A stretch of DNA of 64,000 nucleotides from Candidatus Moraniibacteriota bacterium. GTDB lineage: Bacteria; Patescibacteriota; Minisyncoccia; Moranbacterales; GCA-2747515. Under the pieces are notes generated by a model. That model searched no databases, was not told where the DNA came from, and worked only from the letters and a program-made list of their open reading frames with translations. Where the stretch lies: positions 577,734-641,733 of the forward strand of contig CP175956.1 in NCBI GenBank assembly GCA_046116545.1, given 5' to 3'. This document shows positions 705 to 58,584 of the stretch, piece by piece. The translations under genes and the position numbers were made by a program. Numbering within the stretch: the first letter of the stretch is position 1; each line of letters begins with the position of its first letter.

Positions 705-769
705 TTAACGTTAGTATTTTTAACAAAAGAATATAAATTTTTCAAGAATTTCATATACGGAGGAGTAAA

Positions 770-3649: not shown

Positions 3650-3678
3650 GAAGTTAGTTTAGCATAATTATAAATAAT

Positions 3679-5049
3679 ATGACAGCAAAAAAGAATAAGT
3701 CACAAGAAAGAAAATTTTATATTAGTGGAATGCATTGTGCTTCTTGTAAAGGAATTGTAGAAGATCGTCTTCAAGAACAAAAAGAAGTACAAAGTGCAGA
3801 TGTTGATTTGAAAAAGGGAACAGTTGAAATTGTGTTTGAAAGTAGAGTATTAGAAGTAGATGAAATTACAAAAAAGTTTGAGGATGTAGGGTATTTTTTT
3901 TCAGAGCAACCTTTTAAGAAAAAAGCATATAAAAAGGTTGGGTTGGTCTTGCTTGTGGCTTTGATGGTAAGCTTTGTATTGATACAAAATGAACAGTTCA
4001 TGTTGTTTAGTGGAACAAATGTTGATGAAAATTCATCATTGATGGCATTTGTTGTGTTGGGGATAGTGGCTAGTTTATCTAGTTGTGTAGCCTTGGTGGG
4101 AGGAATCTTATTAGCTATGACAAAAAGTTGGACAAAGACAGTAGGCAAAGAAGCTTCACTTTCAAAAAAAATGGAACCACATATGAAATTTCATATTGGA
4201 AGGTTGGTGGCTTATTTTATAGGTGGTGGAATTTTGGGCTCTATCGGAAGTTTTATAACATTTGATAATCCAAGTGTGTATGCAGTACTTACTGCTTTAG
4301 TTGCAATTATAATGTTGTTGGTAGGATTGCAAATGTTAGGTGTAAAATGGGTTTTGAGAATGTATGTTTTTGCGTATGACAATACACTGAAAAAAATTCA
4401 TATTAATGATAACGTGAAAAATAAATCACCCTTTATTGCAGGTGCGGCAACATTTTTTATTCCTTGTGGATTTACCTTGATTGCACAAGGAGTGGCATTG
4501 ACTGCGGGCAGTTTTATGTCAGGAGCCGCAATTATGTCAGCATTTGCAATTGGAACATTACCAGTATTAATAGGTGTGAGCTTAGGAGGTGCTACTATGA
4601 TTGGCAAAAAAGGATTTGAAGTAATTTTTAATACTATAATAGGAACGATTATAATAATATTTGCAATTTATATATTAAATGGTCAATTTAATGTTTTGGG
4701 ATTACCTAGCTTAAATGATATTAGCTTTGAAAAAACAGGAGCTGTTGAGCAAATTGAAAATAGTAAAACTAACCAAAAGAATACTCAGGAGTTAAATATT
4801 GTAGCAGATGGTTTTGAATATGTAGTTTTGGGATCAAAAATACTGAAGGCAGGCGTGCCAACAACCATTATTGTGGATAATCAGGGTATTGTGGGATGTG
4901 GTGTTTTTATGGCAGCTAGAGGTTTGTTTGAGGGCATGATTGAATTAAAGCCAGGCATTAATAAAAAAGAATTTATACCAGAGGCGGGAACGTATAAATT
5001 AACATGTACTATGGGAATGGTTGCACCAGTTACAATTATTGTTAAATAA
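3679..5049 (+). CDS. Heavy-metal-associated (HMA) domain fused to a polytopic membrane domain and a C-terminal beta-rich (cupredoxin-like?) domain; copper-handling accessory protein
   Basis: N-terminal GMHCASCKG HMA motif, ~8 predicted TM helices (FFIPCGF segment) and a C-terminal soluble domain with a TCTMGM motif. Immediately upstream of copA. Confidence 0.55.
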   Translation: MTAKKNKSQERKFYISGMHCASCKGIVEDRLQEQKEVQSADVDLKKGTVEIVFESRVLEVDEITKKFEDVGYFFSEQPFKKKAYKKVGLVLLVALMVSFVLIQNEQFMLFSGTNVDENSSLMAFVVLGIVASLSSCVALVGGILLAMTKSWTKTVGKEASLSKKMEPHMKFHIGRLVAYFIGGGILGSIGSFITFDNPSVYAVLTALVAIIMLLVGLQMLGVKWVLRMYVFAYDNTLKKIHINDNVKNKSPFIAGAATFFIPCGFTLIAQGVALTAGSFMSGAAIMSAFAIGTLPVLIGVSLGGATMIGKKGFEVIFNTIIGTIIIIFAIYILNGQFNVLGLPSLNDISFEKTGAVEQIENSKTNQKNTQELNIVADGFEYVVLGSKILKAGVPTTIIVDNQGIVGCGVFMAARGLFEGMIELKPGINKKEFIPEAGTYKLTCTMGMVAPVTIIVK

Positions 5050-5056
5050 TAAAATT

Positions 5057-7345
5057 ATGATTACACAAAAATATTATGTTTCAGGAATGCATTGTGCTTC
5101 TTGTAAGGTGAATATAGAAAATGAGTTAAAGAAAAATGAATTAATTGAGGAAGCTTCCGTGAATTATAGTGCTGAAACAATGCAAGTTACATTTAATGAA
5201 AAAGAATTAAGTGATGGTGATATTCAAAAATTAGTTAGAGGCATTGGTGATTATGATACGCGTCCAGATAATGATGGGGGGCGAAGTAAACATCAGAAAG
5301 AGAAAAATGAAAATTTAAGTAAGATGAAGCGAAATTTAATATATGTATCAATTGCTGCAGCACCTTTTATCATGAGTATGGCATTCATGCTAATAAATGG
5401 AATATTTGATTTAAATATTTTGGGTGGTTTTTCAACAAGGTTAGATAGTATAATGCTTTTTGGAATATCAGTTGTGAGTATAGCTCAAATTGTATTAGCT
5501 GGATTTGTTCTGTTTGTTGGCGGAAGATTATTTTTTGTTAATGCATTTGCAGCGATAAAAAAAGGTTCAAGTAATATGGATACATTGGTAGTGCTAGGTG
5601 CAACTACTGCTTGGATTTATTCTACGATTGTTACGATATTTTTTGCAGGCAGTGAACAGGAGTTTGTTGTGTTTTTTGAGGCATCTGTGTTTATTATATT
5701 TTTTATTTTAGTAGGTAGATATTTTGAAGAAAAAGCTAGGACAGCGACACAAAAAAGTGTGGAAAGTTTATATGCAATACAATCAAAAGTAGCTGTTGTT
5801 TTGCGGGATTTGAAAAAGGTAGAGATTGCAATTAAGAACGTTGTAAAAAAAGACAATGTTGTCGTTATGCCGGGACAAAAAATTCCTGTAGATGGAGTTA
5901 TAATTGAAGGTAAAACAGCAATTGATGAGTCAATGATCTCTGGAGAAGCTTTTCCGGTGGATAAAAAAGAAGGTGATGCTGTCATAGGTGGCACACTTAA
6001 TACAACGGGTTATATTGTTTTTGAAGCAACTAAGGTTGGTAAGGATACAATGCTTTCACAAATTATTAAAATGGTTGAAGAAGCTCAGGGGAGTAGTGTG
6101 CCAATTCAAAAACTTGCAGACAAAATTTCAAGTATTTTTGTACCCATTGTAATAATTATTGCTGTAGGCACATTTATCTTTTGGTATTTTGTTGCGCCAA
6201 ATATGAACTTGATAGAGGCTTCACAAGCATTGCCATTTGCGGTATATGTGACAATTTCTGTTTTGGTCATAGCATGTCCATGTGCGCTTGGACTTGCAAC
6301 GCCAACTGCGATAATTGTATCGGTAGGACATGCAGCCAGAAAGGGAATTTTAATTAAAAATGCACAAATTATTGAAAATGCATTCAAGATTAAAAATATA
6401 GTTTTTGATAAAACAGGAACAATTACGCAAGGTAAACCAGCTGTAACAGATTCTGTTTATTTTGACGATGAAAAAAAATACGCAAATTATGTGTATGCTT
6501 TGGAAAATAAAACAGAGCATCCTGTGGCTAAGGCGATAATAAATTTTTTGGAAGTTAGTGAAAATAATTTAAGTGAAGAAAAGGTTGAGGATTTTCATAA
6601 TTTAGAAGGCGTAGGCGTGAGAGGTATTATTGACGGAGAAAAAGTCATGATGGTGAAAATGAGTTCTGTTAAAGAATATGCAAAACTGACTTTGGAACAA
6701 AAAAATGTTACAAACAGTTTTCTTGAAAAAAAATATACAATATCAGTGTTTATAGTTGGAGATTCAATAAAGGCAATTTTTGCAGTAACAGATCCAATAA
6801 AAGAAACTAGTTACAAGGCAATTAGTGCATTGAAAGAAAAAGGAATTAAAACAACTATGGTAACAGGTGATAATGAGAATATTGCACAGTGGGTTGCTTC
6901 TAGTGTTGGAATAGATAATGTAGTAAGTGATGCAGTGCCGCTAGACAAAGATAGAATCGTGCAAAAAATTAAAAAGGAATCAAAAGAAGGTGAATTAATT
7001 GCAGTTGCGGGTGATGGTGTGAATGATGCACCAGCGCTGGCTAGAGCTGATATTGGAATTGCGATGGGTACAGGTTCAGACGTTGCGATTGAATCAGGAG
7101 ATATTGTAATTGTTAAGGGATCATTGCAAAAGATTGTTGATGCAATAAATTTATCTAAAAAAACAATGCACATAATAAAACAAAATCTTTTTTGGGCGTT
7201 TGGATATAATGTTCTAGCTATTCCGATTGCAATGGGGTTCTTGTATCCATTTTTTGGTGTAGTTTTGTCACCGACTATTGCAAGCGCTGCAATGGCACTT
7301 AGTTCCATAAGCGTTGTTTTAAATAGTTTGCGTTTGAGGCGATAA
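5057..7345 (+). CDS. copA: Copper-translocating P1B-type ATPase
   Basis: N-terminal HMA GMHCASCK, TM CPC motif (ACPCALGLATP), phosphorylation site DKTGTIT and GDGVNDAPAL. The start moves to ATG 5057 (after the upstream stop 5047-5049) rather than ORF-track 5021. Confidence 0.9.
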   Translation: MITQKYYVSGMHCASCKVNIENELKKNELIEEASVNYSAETMQVTFNEKELSDGDIQKLVRGIGDYDTRPDNDGGRSKHQKEKNENLSKMKRNLIYVSIAAAPFIMSMAFMLINGIFDLNILGGFSTRLDSIMLFGISVVSIAQIVLAGFVLFVGGRLFFVNAFAAIKKGSSNMDTLVVLGATTAWIYSTIVTIFFAGSEQEFVVFFEASVFIIFFILVGRYFEEKARTATQKSVESLYAIQSKVAVVLRDLKKVEIAIKNVVKKDNVVVMPGQKIPVDGVIIEGKTAIDESMISGEAFPVDKKEGDAVIGGTLNTTGYIVFEATKVGKDTMLSQIIKMVEEAQGSSVPIQKLADKISSIFVPIVIIIAVGTFIFWYFVAPNMNLIEASQALPFAVYVTISVLVIACPCALGLATPTAIIVSVGHAARKGILIKNAQIIENAFKIKNIVFDKTGTITQGKPAVTDSVYFDDEKKYANYVYALENKTEHPVAKAIINFLEVSENNLSEEKVEDFHNLEGVGVRGIIDGEKVMMVKMSSVKEYAKLTLEQKNVTNSFLEKKYTISVFIVGDSIKAIFAVTDPIKETSYKAISALKEKGIKTTMVTGDNENIAQWVASSVGIDNVVSDAVPLDKDRIVQKIKKESKEGELIAVAGDGVNDAPALARADIGIAMGTGSDVAIESGDIVIVKGSLQKIVDAINLSKKTMHIIKQNLFWAFGYNVLAIPIAMGFLYPFFGVVLSPTIASAAMALSSISVVLNSLRLRR

Positions 7346-7600: not shown

Positions 7601-7662
7601 GTTTGTTGACTTAATAATTGAAGATAATAAAATACGTTTCTCATAAAAGGGAAGGAGATAAT

Positions 7663-9618
7663 ATGAGTATTTCTAATTTTTGTAAATCTGTTGCAAAACT
7701 TCTTGAAACTCATTTAGAGTTTTCAAAAAGTAGTTTGCGTAGTGTACAGGTAGGCGGTTTTGAAAAGCTTATCAATTTTATCAATTCTGGTAAATTGAGT
7801 GGCTTAGTAAAACATCCTACAGGTGCAGGCAAAACTCGTTTTTTTTGCGAAGTTTTGTCAGCACTTAATATGCCTTCGCTCATTCTTGTACCAAGAACGA
7901 ACCTTGTAGCTGATACAAAGGAATCACTTGTTGGTAACGAGATGAGAGATGTAGAAGGTGTGGGTTATTTGGAAGAAGATATATTTCTTTTGAGTGATGA
8001 ATTTGGAAAAGCAGCCATTGCTTTAAAAAGCATTTTTGATAATATCATTAAAATGCAGGATTTTGGAGGAGTTGTCATCATGTCATATCAGTCGTTTTTG
8101 AGTATTTCAAAGCATGATATGTATACTCTTGATGATTTTATGAAACTCATCAAGGTAGTCATATCTGATGAAGCTCATAGAGGACTTGGAGATGAAACGC
8201 AAGAGGTTATCAAGCAATACAATGATGACATCATTGGAGATGGTGTTGATCGAGTGCATTTGCACATGACAGCAACTCCACAATTGGGTCATAAAAATGT
8301 ATGTGACATATATGATATTGAAGTGATAGATTGGGTACGTGTACAAGATTCTGTTGAAGATGGAATCCTTATCATGCCACAATTTCGTCATTTTGGTACA
8401 GCCACATACAAAACTACTGATGATATTAAATTTTCTGACAAGTTCTTTGAAAGTCTTGCAGAAAGTGAGAAGTTCGTCATGGATAATGGCCAATCTGTAA
8501 CTGAGGCAGCTATAGATGAATACATTATGTTAAAAGAAAAGCATGATGGATATTTACCTGGAGTTGTATTTTGTGGAACTATTGCTCATGCAGAGGCCAC
8601 TAAACAATATTTACTGTCACGAGGACTAAGGGCAATTCGCTCTACAAGTTCTAATAAACAGTATGATTGTGGCGTAAATCCTGACAGAGCAAGAGAGATG
8701 TTTCACAGCGAAGAAATCGATCTTGTAGTTACAGTAAGTAAGGTTGGAGAAGGTTGGGATGTGCCAACACTTCGCTGTGCCATTTGGCTTAGGCCAGTAG
8801 GTTCATCTGCAGTATATCTTCAAGGTACAGGTCGTGTGATGCGAACACTTCTTGATAATACCGTACATGCATTTAAGGATCGTTCAAATACTTATGTGAT
8901 TGAACCACTTTGGGAACTTGTACGTGTAAGTAGTGTAACAGAAGACAAAAAAGAAGATGAACATGAAAAAGAAATCGTAGAGAATGATTTAGCTGATACT
9001 GATTCTGATGCACAAACAACTGTATATCCGTCAAGAAATGGATATGAACATTTTGTTACAGCAGATGAATTTGATGTTGAAGCGCTACGTTCAATTGTTG
9101 GAGGAGATGCGCGTATTCATATGGATATTGATTTTCATAATGATGAGCATCTTCGAATCCTGATTGGTAGTGTAGACAAGCTTATTGTTAAAGGTAAGGG
9201 TGTGAATTTAGTAAAAGTGACTTTCATTAATACTGAACAAGATTGGAAAGTAACAGGTCGTGTTATTGGCAGAGTTTTGTGGAATAACTCAAGTCCAAAA
9301 ATTTATGATGCAGAAAAACTGGCTAAACAGTTATGGCCAGAGGAAGTTGAGAATTTGTTACCAAAGGAAAGATTTAATCCTAAGGATGATAATCACCTTC
9401 GAATACTAATAGGAAATGTAGATAATCTTATTGTTAATGGTAAGGGTGTGAGTTTAGTAAAAGCAACTTTCATTAATGCTGAACGAGGTTGGAAAGTAAC
9501 AGGTGGTGTTATTGGTAATGCTTTGTGGAAAAAGAAAAGTCCAAATATAGCTGATGCAGAAAAACTGGCTAAACAACTTTGGCTTGAAGAGGCTGAGAAG
9601 TTGTTGGACAAAAAATAA
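7663..9618 (+). CDS. SF2 DEAH-type helicase (ResIII-like core) with a C-terminal duplicated ~82-aa domain
   Basis: Walker A HPTGAGKTRF, DEAH VISDEAHR, motif III MTATPQ and motif VI QGTGRVMR. The start is moved to ATG 7663 (strong RBS) from ORF-track 7618. The C-terminus has 2 x (HLRILIG.VD.LIV.GKGV.LVK.TFIN.E..WKVTG.VIG..LW...SP.I.DAEKLAKQLW). Confidence 0.75.
   Translation: MSISNFCKSVAKLLETHLEFSKSSLRSVQVGGFEKLINFINSGKLSGLVKHPTGAGKTRFFCEVLSALNMPSLILVPRTNLVADTKESLVGNEMRDVEGVGYLEEDIFLLSDEFGKAAIALKSIFDNIIKMQDFGGVVIMSYQSFLSISKHDMYTLDDFMKLIKVVISDEAHRGLGDETQEVIKQYNDDIIGDGVDRVHLHMTATPQLGHKNVCDIYDIEVIDWVRVQDSVEDGILIMPQFRHFGTATYKTTDDIKFSDKFFESLAESEKFVMDNGQSVTEAAIDEYIMLKEKHDGYLPGVVFCGTIAHAEATKQYLLSRGLRAIRSTSSNKQYDCGVNPDRAREMFHSEEIDLVVTVSKVGEGWDVPTLRCAIWLRPVGSSAVYLQGTGRVMRTLLDNTVHAFKDRSNTYVIEPLWELVRVSSVTEDKKEDEHEKEIVENDLADTDSDAQTTVYPSRNGYEHFVTADEFDVEALRSIVGGDARIHMDIDFHNDEHLRILIGSVDKLIVKGKGVNLVKVTFINTEQDWKVTGRVIGRVLWNNSSPKIYDAEKLAKQLWPEEVENLLPKERFNPKDDNHLRILIGNVDNLIVNGKGVSLVKATFINAERGWKVTGGVIGNALWKKKSPNIADAEKLAKQLWLEEAEKLLDKK
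9139..9618 (+). repeat. In-frame direct duplication (2 x ~246 bp) forming the C-terminus of helicase 2
   Basis: The protein repeats begin DDEHLRILIGSVDKLIV... and DDNHLRILIGNVDNLIV.... Confidence 0.8.
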
Positions 9619-25421: not shown

Positions 25422-28400
25422 ATGAAATTTTTTCTATCTAGCATCTTCACAATGTTATTTTTGTTTAATATACAAAGTATTGTTGCACAGGAAGTTACGC
25501 AAGATGATGTTAATGTAGTAGATGATTTATCTTTGACAGGATCGTTTGAAAATATAGAATTTGTAGATAATCAGCCGCTGTTAGATAGTGATGTAGATGG
25601 TGCGACATATGGCAGTGATGAGATATATGTACCAGAAGTGGTGGTAGAATTAAGTGATATATTGTTTGATGAAAATACTTATGAGCTTAATACTGTAACA
25701 ACGGTGACAAATACTACTGATACATTTTTGGCTAATCTAGAGTATACGCTGGAATTGGGAAAAGGTGATGAATTGGTAGAAAATGGAGATATCTTTGGAG
25801 CTACTGAATATGTATATCAAGAAACACATGACCTCGGTAAGTTGGCGCCATACGAGAAAAAGGAGTTTGAGCTTACGATGACAGTGCCAAATAATATCGA
25901 TCCAGCAAATTATGTTTTGCAAATTTTTGTCAATGATAAGAATTTGAAATTTCAAAATGGTACATACACAGAACAGCCGTTTGAATTATCGGGAACTGGC
26001 GGTCGCTTGACGGGGCTCAAGGTGTATTTTTACGCAGATCGTTATGGTGAAAAAACGTTTCCAGCAGCTGGACTTTCAACAGAACCAGATGATTATGTGA
26101 TGCTTATGTTGCCGCTTGATGAAAATCAAAGCGTAAAAGATCTCGTGGATGCTGGAGAGCAGTTGCGTGCAAAGGTGCAGATCTTTCGTACAGTAAAAGA
26201 TGGTGGTATGGTCAAAGAATTTGAGACGGGATTTGATCGCAAAGATGTAAATGGCCAAAATTCTATCACTGTTGATCTATTAGCTGATAATGAAGAGCTC
26301 AAAACTGGTGGTTCGTTTGATGTACATATTGCAGTATTAAATGAAGATGGGACAGAGTTATATGAGAGAAATATGCGGTGGCTTATTGAATTTGGACAGA
26401 TTGTTGGACGAGTTTTGAGTGTAGAATCTGGAAAGAATATGTACAAAAAGGGTGAGGCAATTGATCTTATGGTTACAACTGCACTTTTTAATTCTGAGGA
26501 TAAAAAAGGAAGATTTGATATTGTGTTGAAAGGGAGGAATGGCTTTGAACAAAAAATTACAAAGACAGTTACATTTGTTGGTGATGATGTGGAAGAAGTT
26601 CTTTTTTCTGATAAGAAGATTGAATCTGATGCACACCTTACGGATGTTGAAGTATCGTTAGTTGATGTTGAAAACAATATTGTAGTAGATGCTTACAATA
26701 CGGATATTGATTTTGACGAGATGTATGGTAGAGAAGTAGAAAAACAAAATGTTTTTCTAGTATTTTTGCAAAACAATAGATATATCATTTGGGTAGTGGG
26801 TACTATAATTTTTGGACTTTTAGCAATCGTGATCTATAAGACTATGGTAGGACGAAAGATGATGCGTATGGTGATAATAGTTCTTTTGGGAGTAAATATG
26901 TTTTTTATTACATCGTATGCTGTAGAGGCAGCGTGTGATTGTTCACGAACTCCAAGTGCTAATATTTGGATCACGCGTGCACCACCATCACGTGTAACAT
27001 GTGGTACTAATGCACGGATGGAAGTAGCGCTGCGCGTATCATGTCGCTCATGTATTAATGGAGTGGCAACACGAATCACCACGAGTGCTGGTACCAGAAA
27101 AGATTGGTCATATGGACATTATAGTAGTGCAACAAGATATTATGCATTTACACAGCGTATCTCACGAAGTACGCGGATGTGGGCAAAAGCATGGTTTATA
27201 CGTAATGGTTGTCATTGTTGTCCACGACCTGGTGGTAGTGGTTGTCATCCGGGCGTAACGAACGGGTCAATGTGTGGGATCAATGTTCCTATTGGGCAAG
27301 TTGCAAAAACGGTTACTTGTACAAATCCAGCACGTAACGGGGTATGTGGCACAAGACATAAGAGAACATATAATTATGATGCAGTTGGATGGGGTGGTTA
27401 TAGTCGTTGTAGTGTGGGAACACCTGTGCCGACATGGCCTTCATTTCCAGCTCAAGGAGCAACAACAACATGGACATGTAGTGGTTCAAATGGAGGTAGC
27501 ACGGCAAATTGTTGGGCAAAGAGGAGTGAACCGCCAAGAATTGATGGTGTATGTAAGCTACAAACATCCCCGATTAATACATTAGATAGTAAGCCGACAC
27601 AATCAAATTCAACTTTATGTAGTTCTGGAACTGCAACAACAATAACAGGAGATGGTTCTGTAGCAAGTCCATGGAGGTGGGATTGTAATGGATCCGGTCC
27701 AGTCCATACAGATCAAACGGGTTGTATTGTACGAATGAATCCAGGTAGATGTGGAACAACATCAACTCCATATGATTATAAAAGTGACTGGAATGGAACA
27801 GAAACATTTTGTAGCTTTGGTGTTGCAGTTCCAACACAAAATTCAAGTACCTTTCCTCAAATCGATGTTAATAATCCACAACCAATATCAACATCATGGA
27901 ATTGTAGAACTGTTGGAGGAGATAGCCCTACTTGTACAGCAATAAATAATCCACCATCAATAAGTTGTGGAGTTGCAAATAATGAGACAGAAATAAATAC
28001 AACGCCATCTCCAAGTTCAAGTTTATGCAGTGCTAATGCAGCTGAAATTAATTCACCAGCATTAAACAGTATAGGTAGATGGGAGTGGAATTGTAAATAT
28101 AATGGATTAAATCTAACAGCTGGACCATGTAGTGCACCATCATGCCTAGCAGGAGATCTACTAAACTATTCATCAAATGTGTACCTAAAACAAGATCCAA
28201 ATGATCAAACAGTTAGTGTATCAGTTGTGTGTGATAATCCAAATCCTCCTAAAATATGTTGTGACATAGATGCAGTAGAAGTAGGTTCGAATCCAGTGAA
28301 TAATCCAACACATATATGTACAGGAGAAGGAACAAAAGAAATAGTTGTGCCAGTAGCAGGAAGTTATCCAGCACAATGTTATTTTGTAGATCCTTCTGAT

Positions 28401-28604
28401 CCAACATGTGAGGACGACGGATCATGTCCGGATCCAGTAACAAAAACAGTTACAATATCAACTATGTGTGCTCAAAAAGAATGTAATGCACAAGGAAGCT
28501 GCCAATCAACACCAATAGCAGCTTCAGATCTAAGTCAATGTTCAAGTACATGTAATTCAAATGCAGATTGTTCTAGTGGTAGGATTATTGAGACTAGGCC
28601 ATAA
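25422..28604 (+). CDS. Large secreted/surface Cys-rich protein (N-terminal domain, TM helix, internal signal-peptide-like segment, then repeated W-x-C / C-x-G-x-G Cys modules)
   Basis: Signal peptide MKFFLSSIFTMLFLFNIQSIVAQE. TM at IIWVVGTIIFGLLAIVIY followed by MMRMVIIVLLGVNMFFITSYAVEA (in-frame ATGs at 26859/26862). The C-terminal ~570 aa contains >50 Cys. Confidence 0.6.
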   Translation: MKFFLSSIFTMLFLFNIQSIVAQEVTQDDVNVVDDLSLTGSFENIEFVDNQPLLDSDVDGATYGSDEIYVPEVVVELSDILFDENTYELNTVTTVTNTTDTFLANLEYTLELGKGDELVENGDIFGATEYVYQETHDLGKLAPYEKKEFELTMTVPNNIDPANYVLQIFVNDKNLKFQNGTYTEQPFELSGTGGRLTGLKVYFYADRYGEKTFPAAGLSTEPDDYVMLMLPLDENQSVKDLVDAGEQLRAKVQIFRTVKDGGMVKEFETGFDRKDVNGQNSITVDLLADNEELKTGGSFDVHIAVLNEDGTELYERNMRWLIEFGQIVGRVLSVESGKNMYKKGEAIDLMVTTALFNSEDKKGRFDIVLKGRNGFEQKITKTVTFVGDDVEEVLFSDKKIESDAHLTDVEVSLVDVENNIVVDAYNTDIDFDEMYGREVEKQNVFLVFLQNNRYIIWVVGTIIFGLLAIVIYKTMVGRKMMRMVIIVLLGVNMFFITSYAVEAACDCSRTPSANIWITRAPPSRVTCGTNARMEVALRVSCRSCINGVATRITTSAGTRKDWSYGHYSSATRYYAFTQRISRSTRMWAKAWFIRNGCHCCPRPGGSGCHPGVTNGSMCGINVPIGQVAKTVTCTNPARNGVCGTRHKRTYNYDAVGWGGYSRCSVGTPVPTWPSFPAQGATTTWTCSGSNGGSTANCWAKRSEPPRIDGVCKLQTSPINTLDSKPTQSNSTLCSSGTATTITGDGSVASPWRWDCNGSGPVHTDQTGCIVRMNPGRCGTTSTPYDYKSDWNGTETFCSFGVAVPTQNSSTFPQIDVNNPQPISTSWNCRTVGGDSPTCTAINNPPSISCGVANNETEINTTPSPSSSLCSANAAEINSPALNSIGRWEWNCKYNGLNLTAGPCSAPSCLAGDLLNYSSNVYLKQDPNDQTVSVSVVCDNPNPPKICCDIDAVEVGSNPVNNPTHICTGEGTKEIVVPVAGSYPAQCYFVDPSDPTCEDDGSCPDPVTKTVTISTMCAQKECNAQGSCQSTPIAASDLSQCSSTCNSNADCSSGRIIETRP

Positions 28605-28778: not shown

Positions 28779-28949
28779 ATGGTTCATGATAAACATTGCT
28801 CTGTTTGTGATGGAGATAATGTGCAGGAAGAAGTTGTGAAGAAGGGGCATGAAAAAATAGAGCAAAAGGAGGATATATCTTTTGCAGCATTACTTGCACT
28901 TGTGCCAGCAATGACTATGACACTTTTTAATCTTATGGGACTTATTTAA
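28779..28949 (+). CDS. Hypothetical mini-protein with a CxxC motif and C-terminal TM helix (ORF-track TTG start 28641 lies inside the terminator and is rejected)
   Basis: MVHDKHCSVCDGD...ISFAALLALVPAMTMTLFNLMGLI. Confidence 0.25.
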   Translation: MVHDKHCSVCDGDNVQEEVVKKGHEKIEQKEDISFAALLALVPAMTMTLFNLMGLI

Positions 28950-29050: not shown

Positions 29051-29455
29051 ATGAATTTTTTCATGAAAGAATATAAGATGTTTATTTGGGTAGGTATTTT
29101 TATGGTTTTTGCTGTAGGAGGCCTAGTTTGGCTTGCTGGACAAAGTGAAGATATTGTAGCAGAAGATAAAATAGAGCTGAATATGGACGGGATAACTTTA
29201 TTTTATGGAGACGGATGTCCACATTGTGAAGATGTTGATAAATTTAATGAGGAAAATGCTATAAAAAATAAGGTAGTTTTTGATGAATTGGAAGTTTGGA
29301 AAAATAAAGAAAATGCTGATCTCTTAGAAGAAGCGGCAACTATATGTGAATTTGATTTGGATACGATAGGAGTTCCTTTTCTTTTTTCAGATAATGAATG
29401 TTATATAGGCGGTCCTGATGTACAGGAATTTTTTAAGAAGGAGGCTGGACTATAA
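29051..29455 (+). CDS. Membrane-anchored thioredoxin-fold protein (CPHC active site)
   Basis: TM helix, then FYGDGCPHCE. Confidence 0.55.
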   Translation: MNFFMKEYKMFIWVGIFMVFAVGGLVWLAGQSEDIVAEDKIELNMDGITLFYGDGCPHCEDVDKFNEENAIKNKVVFDELEVWKNKENADLLEEAATICEFDLDTIGVPFLFSDNECYIGGPDVQEFFKKEAGL

Positions 29456-38360: not shown

Positions 38361-38494
38361 ATTTGAGATGTAATAAAAATTAAAAAAACGCTGAAATAAG
38401 GCGTTTTTTTAAATTATCTAAGGTGTAATTTTGGTTAGTACTTAGTACATGGTATAATGTGAAGAACTTTTATTAGAAAAACACACATAAAAAT

Positions 38495-41400
38495 ATGAAA
38501 AAAAATATTGTCAAGCTTTTGGGTGTATTTGTTTTTTTTGCGTACCTTGTATCAATGTCCACTACTACAACTTTTGCAGTAGATGAAACAACTATTGAAG
38601 AAATTATTCCAAATGAATTTCAAGGAGGTGGAATAGCGCAAGGATGGCAAGGGGATGATGATAATTGGGATTATGCACTTCCATTCACATTCAATTTTTA
38701 TGGAGTAGATTATACTAATATAAAAATAGGTTCAAATGGAGCTATTTGTCTGGATAATGCACAAAACTGTACATGGTATGCAGAAATAAATAGTAGTTGG
38801 ATGGGGCCAGTTATAACAGCTCTAGGTAAAGACCTTATAACGAATGATATATTTATAACAGAAAGTTCGGATAATGTTGTTATACGGTGGGCTGTAACAG
38901 AATATGGTACATCAAATCAAATAAACTTTGAAGTAGTATTGTATAGTGATGGAAATATAAAGTTTAATTATGGAAATTCTGATATAGCACTTTCAGGTGG
39001 CGCAGTAGTTGGAATTCTTAAAGGTGATGGCATAATATATACAGAATCAGTCTATCATCAAAATACAGAGTTTGATCAAGTGGATACATCAGCATGGGGT
39101 GAGTTTGGAATAGGTGTTGAGAGTTTTTTTCCAGCAGATAATGAAGCTGGTGTGTTTTTGGATACAGACTTAAAAATAACTTTTGATACTGAAATATATC
39201 AAGGAATAGGCAATATTGAAATAAAGAAAAAATCAGATAATTCTATTGTAGAAATGATAGATGTTACAGCAGGTCAAGTAACGGGCTTTGGAACAGTAGA
39301 TATTACAATTTCAACAAATATTGAATTACAAACATATACGCAATATTATGTAACAGTAGATGAAAATACATTTAAAGATATAGATGATGAAGCATATTTA
39401 GAAATAAGTGATAATACAACATGGAACTTTTCAACAGGGGACGGTTATATTATAAAAACAATTTCAGAGGGACGATGTTATGAAATTGGCTCTGCTGAAA
39501 CACAAAAGCCAACAAATACAGAATTATCATACTCAAATGATAATCAAGTGACTTGGACTTATGTGCCTGAAGATCAGGGTACTGGAGGGGACTGTAATAT
39601 TACGGATGTACGACTTAATGTTTTTGCAGATACACAAACAATTGGTGAAAACTTAGAAACCGAGTTTGTGGGAACACTTATAGATACACAAGTTACTAAT
39701 AATGATGATGGAGAAGTTGGTTTAGTATATAATAATGTGGGAACATATGTGTTTGGTAGCACAAACAGAGATGATGGGCAGAGTATTGTAGTAGATACAC
39801 AAAATAATGTATATATTGCAGGAGCCTTTAGTGACACGGTAGACTTCAATCAATCGGGTATCGGGTTACCAGACAACCATACTAGCACTGGTTATCAAGA
39901 TATTTTCATTACAAAATATAATGCAGATAGTTCATATGGTTATACTTATGCAATGGGTGGAACAAATAATGACGTTGGATATGACATCGCAACAGATTCT
40001 CAAGATAATGTTTATATAATTGGAAGCTTTCATTTGACAGTTGATTTTAATCAAACGGGTAGTGGATTGCCAGATATACACACAAGTAATAGTAGACGTG
40101 ATATTTTTATCACAAAAATAAATGCAGATGGTAGCTATGGCTACACGTATACATTTGGAGGACTTCCAGATACTTTTGGAAATAATAATTATGGGTATGC
40201 AATTGCAATAGATTCTCAGGACAATGTTTACGGTATGGGAAATTTTTCTAGAACAATAGACTTCAATCAAACAGGTAGTGGTTCAGTAGATAATCATGTT
40301 AGCAATGGTTATTATGACATATTTATCACAAAAATAAATACAGATGGATCTTATGGTCATACGTATACAATGGGAGGAGTAGGTTATGATTATGGACATG
40401 AGATTACGACGGATACACAAAATAATGTATATATTACAGGTGCTTTTAGTGGCACGGTAGATTTTAATCAAACTGGCAGTGGCTCACCAGATAGTCATAC
40501 GAGCAATGGTAGTAGAGACATATTTATAACAAAATATAACGCAGATGGCTCATATGGCTATACTTATACAATGGGGGATGTAACCTATAATGCTGGACGA
40601 GGTCTTGTGGTGGATACACAAAATAATGTATATATTACAGGAGAGTTTAGTGGCACAGTGGACTTTAATCAAACAGGTAGTGGGTTACCAGATAGTCATA
40701 CTAGTAATGGTATTTTAGACATATTTATTACAAAATATAACCCCGATGGCTCATATGGTTACACTTATACAATGGGTGGATTGGGTTATGATTATGGAAA
40801 TGGAGTTACTCTGGATATGCAGGACAACGTATATATTACAGGATCCTTTAATAACACAGTAGATTTTAATCAAACGAACGGTGGTAGTTCAGATGTGTAT
40901 GTGAGCAATGGCGCTTATGATATTTTTATTACAAAGATAAATGTAGATGGTTCTTATGGTTGGACTAATACATTTGGTGGAACAGATTCAGATTTTGGCC
41001 TTGGTGTGGCACTGGATGATTCCAATGATGTTCTTGTGACAGGGATTTTTAAAGGCACTGTAGAGTTTAATCAAACAGGTGCAGGATTGGCAGAATCATA
41101 TGTAAGTAAGGGTGATTATGATATTTTTATTACAAAATATAACGCAGATGGTTCATATGGAACATTTTTTTCAGATAGTTACAAGACAGTAGGAGATTAT
41201 CAAGTACAGATAGCACATAATGATTCTATGGCGTGGCAACAGTTAGAGATAATGAGCAATGATCCAATAGACACAAACTTGGAATATACAATATTAGATA
41301 ATACTTGTGCAAACACGCTCGTAGGGCCAATATCTGATACTATGATAGATTTATCGTCAATTGGAAATAGTGATGCGGGGTTATGTTTTCAGACAAATTT

Positions 41401-44400
41401 TACAACAATAGATACACAAGTAACTCCGCAAATAAATTCATGGACGGCAACATATGCAATAGAGAGAAATATTACAGACTTTAATTTTAATACAATTTCA
41501 CAAAGTACAATACAAAATTGTGATTGTTATGTGATAGGGTCAGCCGAAGCTGAACAGCCAGAAAATTCAATATTATATTTTTCAAAAGATGATGGATTTT
41601 CATGGGATTATATACCAGTAGACAACGGAGGAGGAATGGATTGTAATGTCACAAATGTAAAAGTGAAATACAATGATGATACTCGTGAAGTAGGCGAAGA
41701 CTTGGAAGGTGAGTTTACTGGAGTAATTACAGACACAGAAATCGTCAATGTTGATGGTGGAGAGATTGAAATAAAAAAAGGTGGAATGGGAACTTATTCT
41801 GTTGGTACTGGTGGTGAAGTGGGTTATGGTGTTGTAGTAGATGGTAACAATAATATTTATGTTACAGGAGAATTTGGAGATACTACGGATTTTAATCAAA
41901 CGGGGGTAGGTGAGTCAGATATACATACTAATAATGGAGCTTATGATATTTTCATTACAAAATATAATGCAGATGGTTCATATGACTATACATATACAAT
42001 AGGTAGTACTGGCGATGATACTGGATTAGATATTATTACAGATGATCAAAATAATGTATATATTACAGGACGGTTTGAGAATACTGTTGATTTCAATCAA
42101 ACGGGTTCTGGTAGTTCAGATGAACATACAGCCATTGGTAGCCTAGAAAATATTTTCATAACAAAATACAATGCCGATGGTTCATATGCATACACATACA
42201 CAATAGGTAGCACTGGATATGACTATGGAGAGGGTGTTGTAGTTGACAGTGTAGGTAATGTATATATGATAGGGTTTTTTGAAAATAGCGTTGAATTTAA
42301 TACAACTGGCTCAGGTGTATCAGATATACACACAAGTCATGGCTCTCGTGATATTTTCATAACAAAATACAATGCAGATGGTTCATATGACTATACTTAC
42401 ACAATGGGTGGTTCAAGTTATGATTATGGGTATGGCATAGCAGTGGATAGTTCGGATAATATATATATGACAGGCTCATTTAGTGGTACTGTTGACTTCA
42501 ACCAAACTGGTTCAGGTGCATCAGATACACATACCAATAATGGCTCTCGTGATATTTTCATAACAAAATACAATGCAGATGGTTCATATGACTATACTTA
42601 CACAATGGGTGGTTCAAGTTATGATGATGGTAAAGATATTATCATAGATAATTTTGGGAATGCATATATTACAGGATATTTTCGAAGTTCAACAGCAGAA
42701 TTTAATCAAACTGGTTCAGGTGCATCAGATATGCATACAACCAATGGATCGTATGATATTTTTATCACAAAAATAAATGCAGATAATGGCTATGGTTACA
42801 CATATACAATGGGGAGTTCTCAATCTGAACATGGGGAAGGTGTCACGGTAGATAATTTAGGTAATGTATATGTTACAGGATATTTTGGGGGAGATATGGA
42901 TTTCAATCAAACTGGATCAGGTGATCCAGATGTTCATGCAATTAGTGGAGGAGGTTATGATGTTTTTATAACAAAATACAATGCAGATGGTTCATATGGC
43001 TACACGCACACAATAGGTGATAACCAAACTGTTTTTGGATTTAGCATTACAACAGACAATTTAAATAACCTTTATACAACTGGATTATTTAATGCCACTC
43101 TTGATTTCAATCAAACTGGAACAGGTGAATCAGATATTCACACAGGCTATATGAATGCGACTATGTTTCTTACAAAAATTAATGCAGATGGAACCTACGG
43201 AACGTTGTATGAATATTACAAATCACCAGGAATCTACCAAACCAAAATCCCCTCAACAAACATAAAAGAATGGAAAGAATTAACAATAGATCAAAATACC
43301 CCAGATGACACAACAATCAAATACGAAATATTAGATCAATTATGTACAAATACGTTGATAAATGAAACAGAGAATACAACAATAGACCTATCAAGTATAA
43401 ATACAATCAATATAGAACTTTGTCTCGAAATAACCTTTGAAACAACAGATGTACAAGAAACTCCAATCTTAAACAGTTGGCAAGCAACCTACACAACAGA
43501 TCCAGAAACAGATGAAGAAGAAATAGATTTTCAGACAATGAGAAATCCAGAATGTGATTTAGTAATATTGCCTATTAATCCAGTAGATCCAATAATTCCA
43601 CCAGAAGAACCAGAAGAAGAAAAAGAATGCAAAACCGACAATATAAAAGAAATAACAAAAGATTCAGTAACTCTAAGAGTAGAAGTAGATGAAGAATACG
43701 CAGATGAGAAAATAAAATTCAAAGTAGAAGTAGAGAATCTATATACAAATGAAAAAGAAACAATAAAACTAACGGATAAACCATCTGATAGTGGAAGAGT
43801 AACTCTAGAGATAGATAACCTAGAAGAAGATACCCAATATAGGTTCAAAGTATCATATCAAGAAGATGATAGCTACGAATACTGTCCACATTCTAAAACA
43901 GCAACAACAGAAAAAACAACTCTAGGACCTACAAAAGAAATAGTAAATCCAGAATGTGGAGAATCAAGTAAAACATATACAGAAGATGAATCAGAATTCA
44001 CAGGAGACTTCTGTCAAACAGGAGAAGTATTAAATATACCAGAATTTCCAAATCAAGGAGAATCATCTTCATGGACATGTACAAATGATGATGAAGAAAT
44101 AACATGTAGCGCTAGTAGAGAAGAAAAAGAAATAGTAACTCCTCCAGTAGTACAAGGAGGAAGTGATCCTGAACCACCAGCACAAGAAGTAACAGATCCT
44201 CCTGTACAAGAACCAACAAAGGAACAACAAAAAGAAAAACAATATCAAGCAGCTGCAGTAGTAGGATTAACAACAGGAACACTAATAGCTCTAGCTTCAA
44301 CAACAATCCCTCTATTCACAACAATCCCAATGGCAGCAACAGATATATTCATAATGCCTTTCTTAGGAATATTAGCTAGAAGAAAAAATGAACAAAACTG

Positions 44401-45142
44401 GGGAACAGTGTTTGAACAAACAACAAAACAACCATTGCCTGGAGTAAAACTAGTTCTAACTGATATAGAGGGCTTTGAAATAGAAACAACATACTCAGAT
44501 CAACATGGAAGATTTGGATTCTTAACAACAAATGGAACATATCTGATACATCCAGAAAAACCAAAATATGAAGAAGACCTAACTCATAACCATGATTCAC
44601 TATACGGAGATGTATATACAGGAGAAGCATTAACAATAGAAGAAAACAAAGTTCTAGCAACAAATATTGCAATGAATGCCCTGAATATAAACTGGAATGA
44701 ATATGCAGATAAAAAAGTAAAAAGCTATACAGGAACTTTCTCAGCAATAAAGAAATGGAGCTTCATAATTCTTTTTTACGTAGGATTTATAGCTACAGCA
44801 GCAATAACTTACCTGTACCCATCAACTCTAAATTACATATTCCTATCTCTATATATGGCACTGTTCATTTATGATAACTTCATAAAACAAAAGAAATATG
44901 GAACAGTAACAAAACATGATAAAAACCCAGTACCTTTTGCAGTAGTATCACTCCATAACAAAGAAACAAATCAAAAAACAGGATTCGCTGTAACAGATGC
45001 AATAGGAAGATATTATCTTCTAGCAGAAAATGGAGATTACAATATGAAAGTAAAAGGACAACCAATATCAGGACAACCTTTTGAAAAACAAGGTAATATC
45101 AATGTTAGGAAAGGTCTTGTTAGGGAGGATATTAAAGTTTAA
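38495..45142 (+). CDS. Giant (2215 aa) cell-surface protein: two blocks of ~10 SBBP beta-propeller repeats inside a duplicated super-module, FN3-like domain, Pro/Glu-rich linker, 3 TM helices and 2 CarboxypepD_reg-like domains
   Basis: Signal peptide, then the repeat unit VDTQNNVYITG.FSGTVDFNQTGSG..D.HTSNG..DIFITKYNADGSYGYTYTMGG. C-terminal modules VKLVLTDIEGFEIETTYSDQHGRFGF and FAVVSLHNKETNQKTGFAVTDAIGRYY. Confidence 0.8.
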   Translation: MKKNIVKLLGVFVFFAYLVSMSTTTTFAVDETTIEEIIPNEFQGGGIAQGWQGDDDNWDYALPFTFNFYGVDYTNIKIGSNGAICLDNAQNCTWYAEINSSWMGPVITALGKDLITNDIFITESSDNVVIRWAVTEYGTSNQINFEVVLYSDGNIKFNYGNSDIALSGGAVVGILKGDGIIYTESVYHQNTEFDQVDTSAWGEFGIGVESFFPADNEAGVFLDTDLKITFDTEIYQGIGNIEIKKKSDNSIVEMIDVTAGQVTGFGTVDITISTNIELQTYTQYYVTVDENTFKDIDDEAYLEISDNTTWNFSTGDGYIIKTISEGRCYEIGSAETQKPTNTELSYSNDNQVTWTYVPEDQGTGGDCNITDVRLNVFADTQTIGENLETEFVGTLIDTQVTNNDDGEVGLVYNNVGTYVFGSTNRDDGQSIVVDTQNNVYIAGAFSDTVDFNQSGIGLPDNHTSTGYQDIFITKYNADSSYGYTYAMGGTNNDVGYDIATDSQDNVYIIGSFHLTVDFNQTGSGLPDIHTSNSRRDIFITKINADGSYGYTYTFGGLPDTFGNNNYGYAIAIDSQDNVYGMGNFSRTIDFNQTGSGSVDNHVSNGYYDIFITKINTDGSYGHTYTMGGVGYDYGHEITTDTQNNVYITGAFSGTVDFNQTGSGSPDSHTSNGSRDIFITKYNADGSYGYTYTMGDVTYNAGRGLVVDTQNNVYITGEFSGTVDFNQTGSGLPDSHTSNGILDIFITKYNPDGSYGYTYTMGGLGYDYGNGVTLDMQDNVYITGSFNNTVDFNQTNGGSSDVYVSNGAYDIFITKINVDGSYGWTNTFGGTDSDFGLGVALDDSNDVLVTGIFKGTVEFNQTGAGLAESYVSKGDYDIFITKYNADGSYGTFFSDSYKTVGDYQVQIAHNDSMAWQQLEIMSNDPIDTNLEYTILDNTCANTLVGPISDTMIDLSSIGNSDAGLCFQTNFTTIDTQVTPQINSWTATYAIERNITDFNFNTISQSTIQNCDCYVIGSAEAEQPENSILYFSKDDGFSWDYIPVDNGGGMDCNVTNVKVKYNDDTREVGEDLEGEFTGVITDTEIVNVDGGEIEIKKGGMGTYSVGTGGEVGYGVVVDGNNNIYVTGEFGDTTDFNQTGVGESDIHTNNGAYDIFITKYNADGSYDYTYTIGSTGDDTGLDIITDDQNNVYITGRFENTVDFNQTGSGSSDEHTAIGSLENIFITKYNADGSYAYTYTIGSTGYDYGEGVVVDSVGNVYMIGFFENSVEFNTTGSGVSDIHTSHGSRDIFITKYNADGSYDYTYTMGGSSYDYGYGIAVDSSDNIYMTGSFSGTVDFNQTGSGASDTHTNNGSRDIFITKYNADGSYDYTYTMGGSSYDDGKDIIIDNFGNAYITGYFRSSTAEFNQTGSGASDMHTTNGSYDIFITKINADNGYGYTYTMGSSQSEHGEGVTVDNLGNVYVTGYFGGDMDFNQTGSGDPDVHAISGGGYDVFITKYNADGSYGYTHTIGDNQTVFGFSITTDNLNNLYTTGLFNATLDFNQTGTGESDIHTGYMNATMFLTKINADGTYGTLYEYYKSPGIYQTKIPSTNIKEWKELTIDQNTPDDTTIKYEILDQLCTNTLINETENTTIDLSSINTINIELCLEITFETTDVQETPILNSWQATYTTDPETDEEEIDFQTMRNPECDLVILPINPVDPIIPPEEPEEEKECKTDNIKEITKDSVTLRVEVDEEYADEKIKFKVEVENLYTNEKETIKLTDKPSDSGRVTLEIDNLEEDTQYRFKVSYQEDDSYEYCPHSKTATTEKTTLGPTKEIVNPECGESSKTYTEDESEFTGDFCQTGEVLNIPEFPNQGESSSWTCTNDDEEITCSASREEKEIVTPPVVQGGSDPEPPAQEVTDPPVQEPTKEQQKEKQYQAAAVVGLTTGTLIALASTTIPLFTTIPMAATDIFIMPFLGILARRKNEQNWGTVFEQTTKQPLPGVKLVLTDIEGFEIETTYSDQHGRFGFLTTNGTYLIHPEKPKYEEDLTHNHDSLYGDVYTGEALTIEENKVLATNIAMNALNINWNEYADKKVKSYTGTFSAIKKWSFIILFYVGFIATAAITYLYPSTLNYIFLSLYMALFIYDNFIKQKKYGTVTKHDKNPVPFAVVSLHNKETNQKTGFAVTDAIGRYYLLAENGDYNMKVKGQPISGQPFEKQGNINVRKGLVREDIKV
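39470..43500 (+). repeat. Internal duplication of a ~2 kb super-module ([Cys module]-[~10 SBBP repeats of ~180 bp]-[~95-aa module]) within the giant surface-protein gene
   Basis: CYEIGSAETQKP.. / CYVIGSAEAEQP.. and YKTVGDYQVQI.. / YKSPGIYQTKI.. flank the two SBBP blocks (39780-41170 and 41810-43200). Confidence 0.8.
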
Positions 45143-54097: not shown

Positions 54098-54130
54098 ATA
54101 TATTAAAAATAAATATTAAATATAAGTCTT

Positions 54131-57146: not shown

Positions 57147-57190
57147 TAGAGCAATGAATCTATATAGATTTATTGCTCTTTATTTTTATT
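57147..57190 (+). terminator. Rho-independent terminator (tagagcaatgaatcta ... tagatttattgctct + T-run)
   Basis: 15-bp stem with one mismatch followed by TTATTTTTATT. Confidence 0.75.
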
Positions 57191-57224: not shown

Positions 57225-57460
57225 AGGAGCCGATTTGTTGGGTTTGTTGATTTTTTACGCGACGCCCATAGAGGCTGTCTGTTATCGGATAGCTAAATAA
57301 GTGTAAGGATGATTCCAAGTATGGCAAAGACTATGCTGACTTAGTTTCTTGCAGAGTAATAAATACGGTGTGTTATTGACAATGGTGAATATCCAAAGCA
57401 CATAACTACCGTGCTAGGGCTCTATGGGAGAAAGAGAATTTATCTTTCTCCCATTTTTTT
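57225..57460 (+). ncRNA. Candidate retron non-coding RNA (msr-msd) / structured leader upstream of the RT
   Basis: ~235-nt untranslated region between promoter and RT RBS. Inverted 9-mers GCCCATAGAG (57264-57273) / CTCTATGGG (57420-57428). Perfect 10-bp hairpin gggagaaaga-gaatttat-ctttctccc (57426-57452). Confidence 0.3.
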
Positions 57461-57497
57461 AAAATAAAGGTACTTTAACATAAAAGGAGATTACAAA

Positions 57498-58529: not shown

Positions 58530-58554
58530 ATCTCAGATGTCATTTTTGATTTTT
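58519..58554 (+). terminator. Rho-independent terminator spanning the RT stop codon (atgacatctga-atc-tcagatgtcat + TTTTGATTTTT)
   Basis: Perfect 11-bp stem. Its left arm supplies the spurious ORF-track ATG 58519 for recQ. Confidence 0.75.
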
Positions 58555-58584
58555 AAACAGATAGATTGTATTATAGTAATTACT

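Follow-up and report, generated by a model that had tools for sequence, protein, structure and literature searches.

The envelope precursors of bunyaviruses and hantaviruses (Gn-Gc) and of flaviviruses (prM-E) contain internal signal peptides at which signal peptidase cuts, and the two resulting chains are made in a 1:1 ratio and work together. The cytochrome b-c1 precursor FbcH of Bradyrhizobium japonicum is a bacterial polyprotein that is cut at an internal segment resembling a signal peptide. In surface layers (S-layers), Sulfolobus SlaB is a beta-sandwich stalk with a transmembrane (TM) segment and SlaA is the canopy, and the SlpA precursor of Clostridioides difficile gives rise to two associated chains. 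Here we describe a gene in a 64,000-nucleotide stretch of DNA (the window) from Candidatus Moraniibacteriota bacterium (assembly GCA_046116545.1, contig CP175956.1, positions 577,734 to 641,733 of the forward strand). The gene, at 25422..28604 (+) of the window, belongs to an ultra-small bacterium of the Candidate Phyla Radiation (CPR; Patescibacteria) and encodes, as one chain, a membrane-anchored stalk and a Cys-rich outer head.

The window protein has the same order of parts as the viral precursors: a signal peptide, a first ectodomain, a TM segment, a short loop, an internal signal with an A-x-A-type site and a second ectodomain. The viral precursors, however, are inserted in the eukaryotic endoplasmic reticulum and no relation in sequence or fold was found, whereas the second ectodomain of the window protein lacks a TM anchor of its own and its cleavage is only predicted. 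The proposed likeness to FbcH is that an internal signal sets off a second round of export, for the downstream part, and is then cleaved, and that the parts are separate genes in other bacteria; FbcH differs in being a respiratory enzyme rather than a surface protein, in its unrelated sequence and in its multi-spanning membrane context. In SlaB/SlaA and SlpA, a beta-sandwich stalk anchored in the membrane or wall bears a second, more variable exposed chain, and the two are co-encoded and stoichiometric. SlaA and SlaB nevertheless come from separate genes, SlpA is cut by the dedicated protease Cwp84 rather than by signal peptidase, no homology was detected, and only the stalk-like fold is seen in the window protein. 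By analogy, the viral precursors and FbcH are the closest working counterparts and the stalk/canopy pairs the closest structural ones; none is homologous.

Large Cys-rich extracellular proteins that vary between strains have been proposed as attachment factors of CPR bacteria from Peribacteria genomes (PMC4736985). Like the head of the window protein they are large, exported and Cys-rich, and they show weak similarity to Myxococcus Cys-rich repeats; that paper describes no layout of stalk, TM segment and internal signal. The window protein itself does not match the Myxococcus cysteine-rich repeat / DUF4215 model (PF13948) even at E <= 1, whereas its paralogue P0041 matches it at 45 bits (related proteins and loci are cited by P and L numbers). 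A literature search found no description of the architecture, and the CPR surface-protein family, with split forms that include DPANN-labelled ones and with apparent polyprotein-style processing, is apparently undescribed so far.

Architecture of the 1060-residue protein

The open reading frame (ORF) is uninterrupted and, with its stop codon included, encodes 1060 amino acids, collinear with full-length homologues at 34-68% identity. An identical protein, called from Met11, is present on a 112-kb metagenome contig recorded in two samples. The chain opens with an ordinary N-terminal Sec signal peptide (residues 1-22, MKFFLSSIFTMLFLFNIQSIVA|QE, 25422..25487 (+)) that coincides with a hydropathy peak and has counterparts in homologues ending ..VFA|QE and ..VSA|QD. 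Composition, AlphaFold2 (AF2) modelling and Foldseek comparison define the stalk as residues 23-452 (25488..26777 (+)). Its ectodomain is acidic (pI 4.2), and residues 1-503 contain no Cys at all; all 41 Cys of the protein lie downstream of the second hydrophobic segment, TM2. The AF2 model of residues 23-452, made with an eight-sequence alignment, has a predicted local distance difference test score (pLDDT) of 69.6 and is all-beta, with a disordered acidic leader followed by three beta-sandwich domains at ~72-188, 202-322 and 328-428.

Against the PDB, Foldseek returned only generic fibronectin type III (Fn3), Ig and macroglobulin (MG)-type arrays for the stalk, at TM scores of ~0.2. With the stalk and full-length models together, the hits were C5a peptidase Fn3 domains, RbmA, alpha-2-macroglobulins and a mastigoneme, at TM scores of 0.1-0.25 and with no functional lead. 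A Pfam scan of ten stalks gave only sub-threshold Ig-like families (DUF4625, WxLIP_HBD). WxL-interacting proteins have an overall layout similar to that of the stalk, with a signal peptide, beta domains and a C-terminal TM segment, and membership in this family (WxLIP_HBD, PF11797) was rejected: P0041 scored 19.2 bits against a cut-off of 28.9, and one stalk of the ten reached E = 0.035. On the models, residues 23-452 are best described as a stalk and not as a recognisable enzyme or binding domain.

The stalk is followed by two hydrophobic segments in close succession. TM1 (YIIWVVGTIIFGLLAIVIY, residues 454-472, 26781..26837 (+)) has a Kyte-Doolittle (KD) hydropathy of 2.46, falls within a predicted helix at 453-474 and is present in all relatives, as expected of a stop-transfer anchor. 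The loop KTMVGRKMMR (residues 473-482, 26838..26867 (+)) carries a charge of +4, within the range of +2 to +5 seen in relatives, and would serve both as a cytoplasmic loop and as the positively charged n-region of an internal signal peptide. TM2 (MVIIVLLGVNMFFITSYAVEA, residues 483-503, 26868..26930 (+), KD 2.23) continues in the same frame and supplies an h-region (MVIIVLLGVNMFFI) and a polar c-region (TSYAVEA|A) in which the -3 and -1 residues are small and uncharged and the +1 residue is not Pro. A signal peptidase I (SPase I) site is predicted at V501-E-A503|A504, between nucleotides 26930 and 26931. In-frame ATG codons occur at 26844, 26859 and 26862 in the loop, at 26868 as the first codon of TM2, and at 26898. 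A feature of Sec/SPase I signal peptides that the segment lacks in the window protein is an N-terminal location, since it starts at residue 473; in the split relatives L009, L010, L012 and L019 the equivalent segment is N-terminal.

Judged by hydropathy, charge, Cys distribution and AF2 helices, the protein has the layout of a polyprotein, with an ectodomain, a stop-transfer TM segment, a short cytoplasmic loop, an internal signal and an exported domain. The full-length AF2 model places adjacent helices at 453-474 and 478-503 between all-beta regions. From the positive-inside rule we infer a cytoplasmic loop, with the two large parts outside and connected through a simple helical hairpin.

The head begins with a separate conserved, membrane-proximal beta domain containing Cys (residues 504-641, 26931..27344 (+)), modelled as all-beta with pLDDT ~60-80 and marked in the alignment by the invariants C505-x-C507, CxxCxNG and N595-G-C-H-C-C600. 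Four Cys/Trp modules follow, which we detected with hidden Markov models (HMMs) built from canonical repeats of other proteins; E-values are given per domain. Modules 1 (residues 642-699, 27345..27518 (+), E = 8.7e-21) and 3 (residues 777-840, 27750..27941 (+), E = 5.5e-7) are of a long type, and modules 2 (residues ~711-770, 27552..27731 (+), E = 1.6e-8) and 4 (residues ~849-905, 27966..28136 (+), E = 3.4e-5) of a short type. A plain BLASTP self-comparison did not reveal the repeats. The remainder is a conserved C-terminal region (residues 908-1060, 28143..28601 (+)), matched by regional HMMs in many proteins with or without a stalk, which ends in a small Cys knot and a tail, ...CNSNADCSSGRIIETRP; knot and tail together, CSSTCNSNADCSSGRIIETRP-COOH, span residues 1040-1060 (28539..28601 (+)).

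The canonical repeat reads CGSSNGxxxxxAPTxNLCSxGTAxxVxGxGPWxWxCxGxNGGxxAxCSA, and a longer variant exists. It forms long tandem arrays in many proteins (P0008, P0009, P0011, P0019) and is found on P0012, which starts with a SipW/camelysin-like signal. The proteins P0010, P0017 and P0018, which carry a type IV prepilin signal (PF07963, N_methyl), have the same module of ~45-60 residues, CG...C...W-x-C-x-G-x-N-G-G-x(4)-C-S-A, in tandem; they differ from the window protein in their class III prepilin start (G|FTLIE), which it lacks. The repeat, which is covered by no Pfam model, is common in Patescibacteria as a mobile unit of extracellular proteins. Elsewhere in the window, one module copy (residues ~1803-1884, E = 5e-8) is present in a surface protein with Big_5, SBBP/DUF5122 beta-propeller repeat and CarboxypepD_reg domains, encoded by a stop-to-stop ORF of 2221 codons at 38477..45139 (+), with the gene called from ~38498 in L001.

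An earlier note, made from the DNA letters alone, had described several of these features correctly: the single 1060-residue frame is intact, hydropathy bears out a TM helix with a second hydrophobic segment in frame behind it, its two ATGs (26859/26862) exist along with three others, and the four W-x-C strings that it quoted are all present. Its figures for the distal half were too high. It had given more than 50 Cys where we count 41, and ~570 residues of repeated modules where there are four units over ~265 residues; its layout had also overlooked the ordinary signal peptide at the N terminus. The statement that neither half matches a known family holds for curated libraries, as neither half has a significant match in Pfam or NCBIfam, and stalk, NGCHCC domain, repeat and tail all lack a curated model. 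The Cys modules, however, are a widespread repeat that type IV prepilin-like proteins carry as well.

The distal half has a higher G+C content than the proximal half. This reflects amino-acid composition, as the rise comes from codon position 2 (GC2 = 0.61) and the G+C content at position 3 (GC3) is below that of the proximal half, and horizontal transfer of the distal half was rejected on these values.

Fused and split relatives

Seven full-length homologues with 34-68% identity are collinear with the window protein, share its two hydrophobic segments and all carry the Ala equivalent to A503. They come from the Patescibacteria group, Pacebacteria/Paceibacterota, Campbellbacteria and Moraniibacteriota. 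A search for related loci with this close alignment found only three loci among GTDB representatives, and a search using the stalk alignment returned one protein, the other candidates having probably been crowded out by words from the TM segments. Searched with a profile, 1.84 billion cluster representatives yielded 1062 matches, 124 of them at E <= 1e-30. The layouts of the best 150 of the 1062 matches were dissected by regional HMMs and hydropathy. About 43 of these 150 listed representatives have a signal peptide, stalk, TM1 (~18-23 residues), basic loop (5-17 residues, charge +2 to +5), TM2 and ectodomain, and the ectodomains after TM2 differ by subfamily in sequence and length (400-2400 residues). 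Recurrence of the arrangement in these representatives and in homologues down to 34% identity indicates that it is beyond chance. The stalk is the better conserved part: identity to the window protein is 81-38% for stalks versus 54-30% for distal halves.

Within the close subfamily (eight sequences), A503 at -1 is invariant and the -3 residue is V, A, I or T. A small-x-Ala pattern ([AVSTILGC]-x-A) following a polar c-region after TM2 is present in 42 of 43 fused relatives, compared with a fraction of 0.50 in random windows taken from the ectodomains of the same proteins. Sites of this kind include VFA|Q, VSA|Q, VLA|D, VEA|A and VDA|K. In their position, the polar c-region before them and the Q, D or A behind them, these sites look like those of the N-terminal signal peptides of the same proteins.

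In other relatives the two parts are separate. Five representatives are stalk-only and end 5-12 residues past TM1, within the basic loop. Three stalk-only loci have an overlapping downstream gene, with the split exactly in the loop. In L010, gene 1 encodes the stalk and TM1 and ends ...MKKKGDSK-TGA, and the overlap with gene 2 is ATGA; the gene-2 product starts with MNREGKAFSQKIMLLLILVFISLLVFGHSGG... and continues into a ...CxxCMNG...NGCHC domain. The overlap in L012 is 11 nt, with AGGAGG within the Lys/Arg/Gly codons of the loop, and L019 repeats this arrangement independently on a 65-kb contig; gene 2 in L012/L019 encodes METKFIVFTVVWFSCLLLFATPVCA|DYG...CHHCINGV...DGCHC. Gene 2 of L009 encodes MSKNKFALLFTFMAVLLIIGIAYA|DG...SCKNCINGV. 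The gene-2 products of the split loci match the domain that follows TM2 in the window family, with domain E-values of 1e-6 to 5e-5. The two halves of the polyprotein layout are thus found apart in L009, L010, L012 and L019, which suggests that TM2 is equivalent to the ordinary N-terminal signal peptide of a separate gene 2. These loci also show that a stalk and a head can function as individual chains whose synthesis is coupled. The arrangement varies in L013, where a stalk-only gene instead comes after two secreted Cys-rich genes, and in L017, where a gene for a short TM-anchored acidic protein precedes a gene with a signal peptide and an IETRP tail.

The cluster of the L010 gene 1 includes five proteins that are only as long as the N part (442 or 430 residues) and come from several assemblies, and a split caused by sequencing error is therefore unlikely. 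One member is labelled Candidatus Diapherotrites / Iainarchaeum, a DPANN archaeon, by NCBI and UniRef; if the source label is correct, this suggests that the stalk family is common to CPR bacteria and DPANN archaea. The split form in L010 (2218-4379, cluster of P0148/P0190) adjoins a gene for the RuBisCO large subunit.

Purine-rich, Shine-Dalgarno-like codons encode the loop in L012 (~1395-1416, AGGAGG), L009 (~3672-3688), L010 (~3527-3545) and the window (26847-26861), and L009 has G7/A6 homopolymer runs just upstream of the gene-2 start. It appears that the same tract can both encode the loop and act as a ribosome-binding site, and the two genes may be especially prone to fuse or split there.

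Tandem paralogues occur at four loci: L002 (6001-9048, 9241-12171), L003 (3275-5881, 6001-9234), L007 (5205-7745, 7866-11081) and L008 (7989-10817, 10949-14275). The L002 pair has very divergent stalks and C-terminal parts that are ~95% identical over ~200 residues, which suggests gene conversion or recombination. In Campbellbacteria, tandem genes of the family lie directly upstream of pilB/pilC and pilin-size ORFs.

The C-terminal tail is the only element common to heads of otherwise different make-up. Near-identical tails of the form ...G[RK][MI]IET[RK]P end ~45 listed representatives, including stalkless proteins with a plain N-terminal signal peptide, and many other stalk-bearing subfamilies end in ...[IV]-x-E-x(1-3)-COOH (for example VIEF, IKEI and IREQ). 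Based on this distribution, we propose that the tail is a docking or sorting tag.

Proposed cleavage and topology, and alternative readings

Our preferred explanation, held with moderate confidence, is that the window protein is a polyprotein-type surface precursor. Cleavage by SPase I behind A503 would separate an anchored stalk from a variable head that is either free or docked, with adhesion or the recognition of a host as the probable role. The N-terminal signal peptide would direct the Cys-free, acidic stalk of three beta sandwiches through Sec, TM1 would halt transfer, and the basic loop would remain in the cytoplasm. TM2, acting as an internal signal peptide, would then re-initiate translocation of the 557-residue Cys-rich ectodomain, and SPase I would cleave after A503 (V-E-A|A-C-D-C). 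Two chains in a 1:1 ratio would result: a 54-kDa stalk (pI 4.3) anchored by the TM1-loop-TM2 hairpin, and a 59-kDa disulfide-rich head (41 Cys, pI 7.8) that itself lacks an anchor. The head might be released, or be held non-covalently on the stalk or envelope, possibly via its C-terminal ...IETRP tail.

The most likely role of the head, by analogy, is attachment to or recognition of host cells or surfaces, because its variable part is built from modules that are also carried by CPR type IV pilin-like proteins. The stronger conservation of the stalk than of the head, the tandem paralogues, and the adjacency to pil genes in Campbellbacteria together with the shared modules point to contact or recognition, in line with the part proposed for large Cys-rich proteins exported by CPR bacteria (PMC4736985).

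Several points weigh against this explanation. The small-x-Ala pattern is permissive, and the part of TM2 without charges frequently spans 18-22 residues, which would suffice for a stable TM helix; we infer cleavage after A503 from the sequence features described above. Since the stalk has no Cys it cannot tether the head by a disulfide, and retention of the head is conjectural. The adhesive function is drawn from analogy and module sharing, and no pilus genes lie near the window gene. The full-length AF2 model is poor (pLDDT 56), with the tail at pLDDT <50 and no sign of the tail docking on the stalk; a model of such low confidence neither supports nor excludes the tail as a docking tag.

The points about TM2 bear directly on an alternative in which the chain, minus its N-terminal signal peptide, stays whole as an uncleaved hairpin of two TM segments, the small-x-Ala being an unused relic of gene fusion. 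Such a hairpin would have the same topology as the cleaved precursor, AF2 predicts a continuous helix at 478-503, and a hydrophobic stretch of 18-22 residues is common at TM2 in relatives. The covalent link would also solve the retention of a head that has no other evident anchor, and small-x-Ala arises by chance in about half of the control windows. On the other hand, no member of the close subfamily departs from Ala at -1, and the polar c-region with small -3 and -1 residues is kept in 42 of 43 divergent members even though the surrounding sequence is not conserved. In split relatives the head is moreover a pre-protein of its own, with a canonical N-terminal signal peptide (AYA|D, VCA|D), which indicates that it needs no covalent link to the stalk in order to work. 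We regard the uncleaved form as unlikely, although far from negligible. Initiation within the gene is a less probable alternative still, in which the head would be made mainly from the ATG at 26859, 26862 or 26868 on the same mRNA, and the full-length chain would be minor or separate. The AGGA that lies 6 nt upstream of 26859, the Met retained there in the five closest homologues, and the purine-rich Shine-Dalgarno that the loop codons give gene 2 in split relatives (AGGAGG in L012) all favour it. Most fused relatives, however, contain no Met in the loop or where TM2 begins (including P0006, P0007 and P0041), and a recognisable Shine-Dalgarno precedes only one of the 25 called genes of this genome region, so that an internal start is not the general mechanism. 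There is no promoter-like site near 26800, a search near the junction found neither an internal promoter nor a terminator, and a separate start would leave the open frame through the junction in ~43 of 150 listed representatives unexplained. The genes of the region (~25, in L001 coordinates) have A/T-rich upstream sequences, and the lineage seems to rely little on Shine-Dalgarno-led initiation.

The existence of split forms, together with purine-rich loop codons and homopolymers at some loci (G7/A6 in L009), could also suggest an artefact, in which a frameshift introduced by sequencing or assembly in the Lys/Arg-rich loop joined two ordinary neighbouring genes, one for the stalk with its anchor and one for a secreted Cys-rich protein. 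We find this barely credible for the window: the identical protein on the 112-kb contig was recorded in two samples, the frame is open in seven more full-length homologues and in dozens of fused representatives from independent assemblies, and the window junction has no long homopolymer. As to function, the same processing could build a stalk-and-canopy lattice as in archaeal SlaB/SlaA instead of an adhesin. The stalk of Ig-like domains with a TM anchor and the expected 1:1 ratio of both products would suit an S-layer. In Patescibacteria, Paceibacterales among them, S-layer candidates composed of Ig-like domains have been reported (bioRxiv 10.1101/2024.05.28.596244). The presence in genomes of tandem paralogues whose heads differ, the great variation of heads in sequence and length, and modules held in common with pilin-like proteins all suit variable adhesins better, and we consider an S-layer very improbable.

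The interpretations offered in the earlier note each touch something real, and neither is the best fit. Its suggestion of a true signal peptide in the second segment is strengthened by the invariance of A503, the 42/43 pattern and the split-gene equivalents. Compared with its option of a re-entrant topology, a simple helical hairpin with both domains outside fits better. Its option of an internal start is possible at this locus, given the ATGs and the AGGA, and fails as a general mechanism. The note had also allowed that resequencing might reveal two ordinary genes. The window gene is not such a pair, because its ORF is intact and collinear with full-length homologues, although the arrangement is true of some relatives.

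Other export routes were considered and rejected. A lipoprotein processed by signal peptidase II would need a lipobox ([LVI][ASTVI][GAS]C), which is found nowhere in the protein; the site is V-E-A-A-C, with Glu at -3 from the Cys, and distant relatives have no Cys at the position after the TM2 site. As a type IV prepilin (class III, PF07963), the window protein would carry G|[FM]TL[IL]E, and neither a regular-expression search nor the Pfam N_methyl model gave a match. A sortase-anchored wall protein is not indicated either, as there is no LPXTG and no C-terminal hydrophobic segment; the chain ends ...GRIIETRP.

A broader proposal, which we put forward tentatively and consider unlikely to hold as a whole, is a two-component display system common to CPR bacteria and DPANN archaea, both of them radiations of ultra-small episymbionts. 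A conserved Ig-like stalk would present interchangeable, fast-evolving Cys-rich heads, the two being made from coupled genes or, in bacteria, as a polyprotein, and the ...I-x-E-x(1-3)-COOH tail would dock heads, even those encoded elsewhere.

Genomic neighbourhood and biological meaning

The window gene sits between clpC and efp-rpsR-ssb-rpsF. A small gene at 28779..28949 (+) may be associated with it on the basis of synteny only; it encodes 56 residues with a CxxC motif and a C-terminal TM segment, ...SFAALLALVPAMTMTLFNLMGLI. Proteins of 54-61 residues with CxxC and this near-identical hydrophobic C terminus are encoded directly 3' of IETRP-tail genes in three loci (the window; L002, 12529-12714; L017, 2339-2503, also L017/L018). 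They have no Pfam match and may represent a conserved partner, or mere synteny among close relatives. Further downstream, 29051..29455 (+) encodes 134 residues with an N-terminal TM segment, a GCPHC (CPHC) motif and a GVPF (cis-Pro-like) motif. The product has no Pfam match and only non-significant PDB matches (E ~0.4); from its motifs it looks like a membrane-anchored oxidoreductase of thioredoxin/glutaredoxin fold. It could have a role in disulfide formation, which would suit the adjoining exported protein with 41 Cys.

A reverse transcriptase of 353 residues (RVT_1) is encoded at 57468..58526 (+), its end overlapping the start of a RecQ helicase gene (58519..60720). Ahead of it lie two short inverted repeats, with palindromes at 57148-57179 and 57424-57454. 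We rejected the window gene as a target of a diversity-generating retroelement, as no template/variable repeat pair links the reverse transcriptase to this gene or to the rest of the window. The enzyme looks more like a retron-type or orphan reverse transcriptase than one of a diversity-generating retroelement. About 1.7 kb upstream of it, 54113..55792 (+) is a 560-residue ORF with 17 Cys and no Pfam match. At the other end of the window, 737..3010 (+) encodes a ResIII/DEAD-type helicase fused to five DUF4379 treble-clef zinc-finger repeats (26 Cys), and a second ResIII helicase is encoded at 7618..9615; a CcdA/DsbD_2-HMA fusion (3658..5046) and a copper-type P-ATPase (5003..7342) lie between them.

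CPR bacteria depend on cell contact, and beyond type IV pili their contact proteins are almost unknown. The family described here, with 1062 profile matches, paralogues within genomes, a conserved anchor and variable Cys-rich heads, is a concrete candidate for host attachment or recognition, and its conserved C-terminal tail is a new candidate sorting or docking motif. The fused and split pairs amount to a natural experiment suggesting that the internal hydrophobic segment is a signal peptide. If this is true, the family would be a rare case of bacterial polyprotein processing by signal peptidase, and programs that predict topology and signal peptides, and that as a rule expect the signal at the N terminus, could usefully be tested on it. 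Finally, the two-component display proposed for CPR bacteria and DPANN archaea would, if it exists, be a cellular counterpart of viral glycoprotein precursors.

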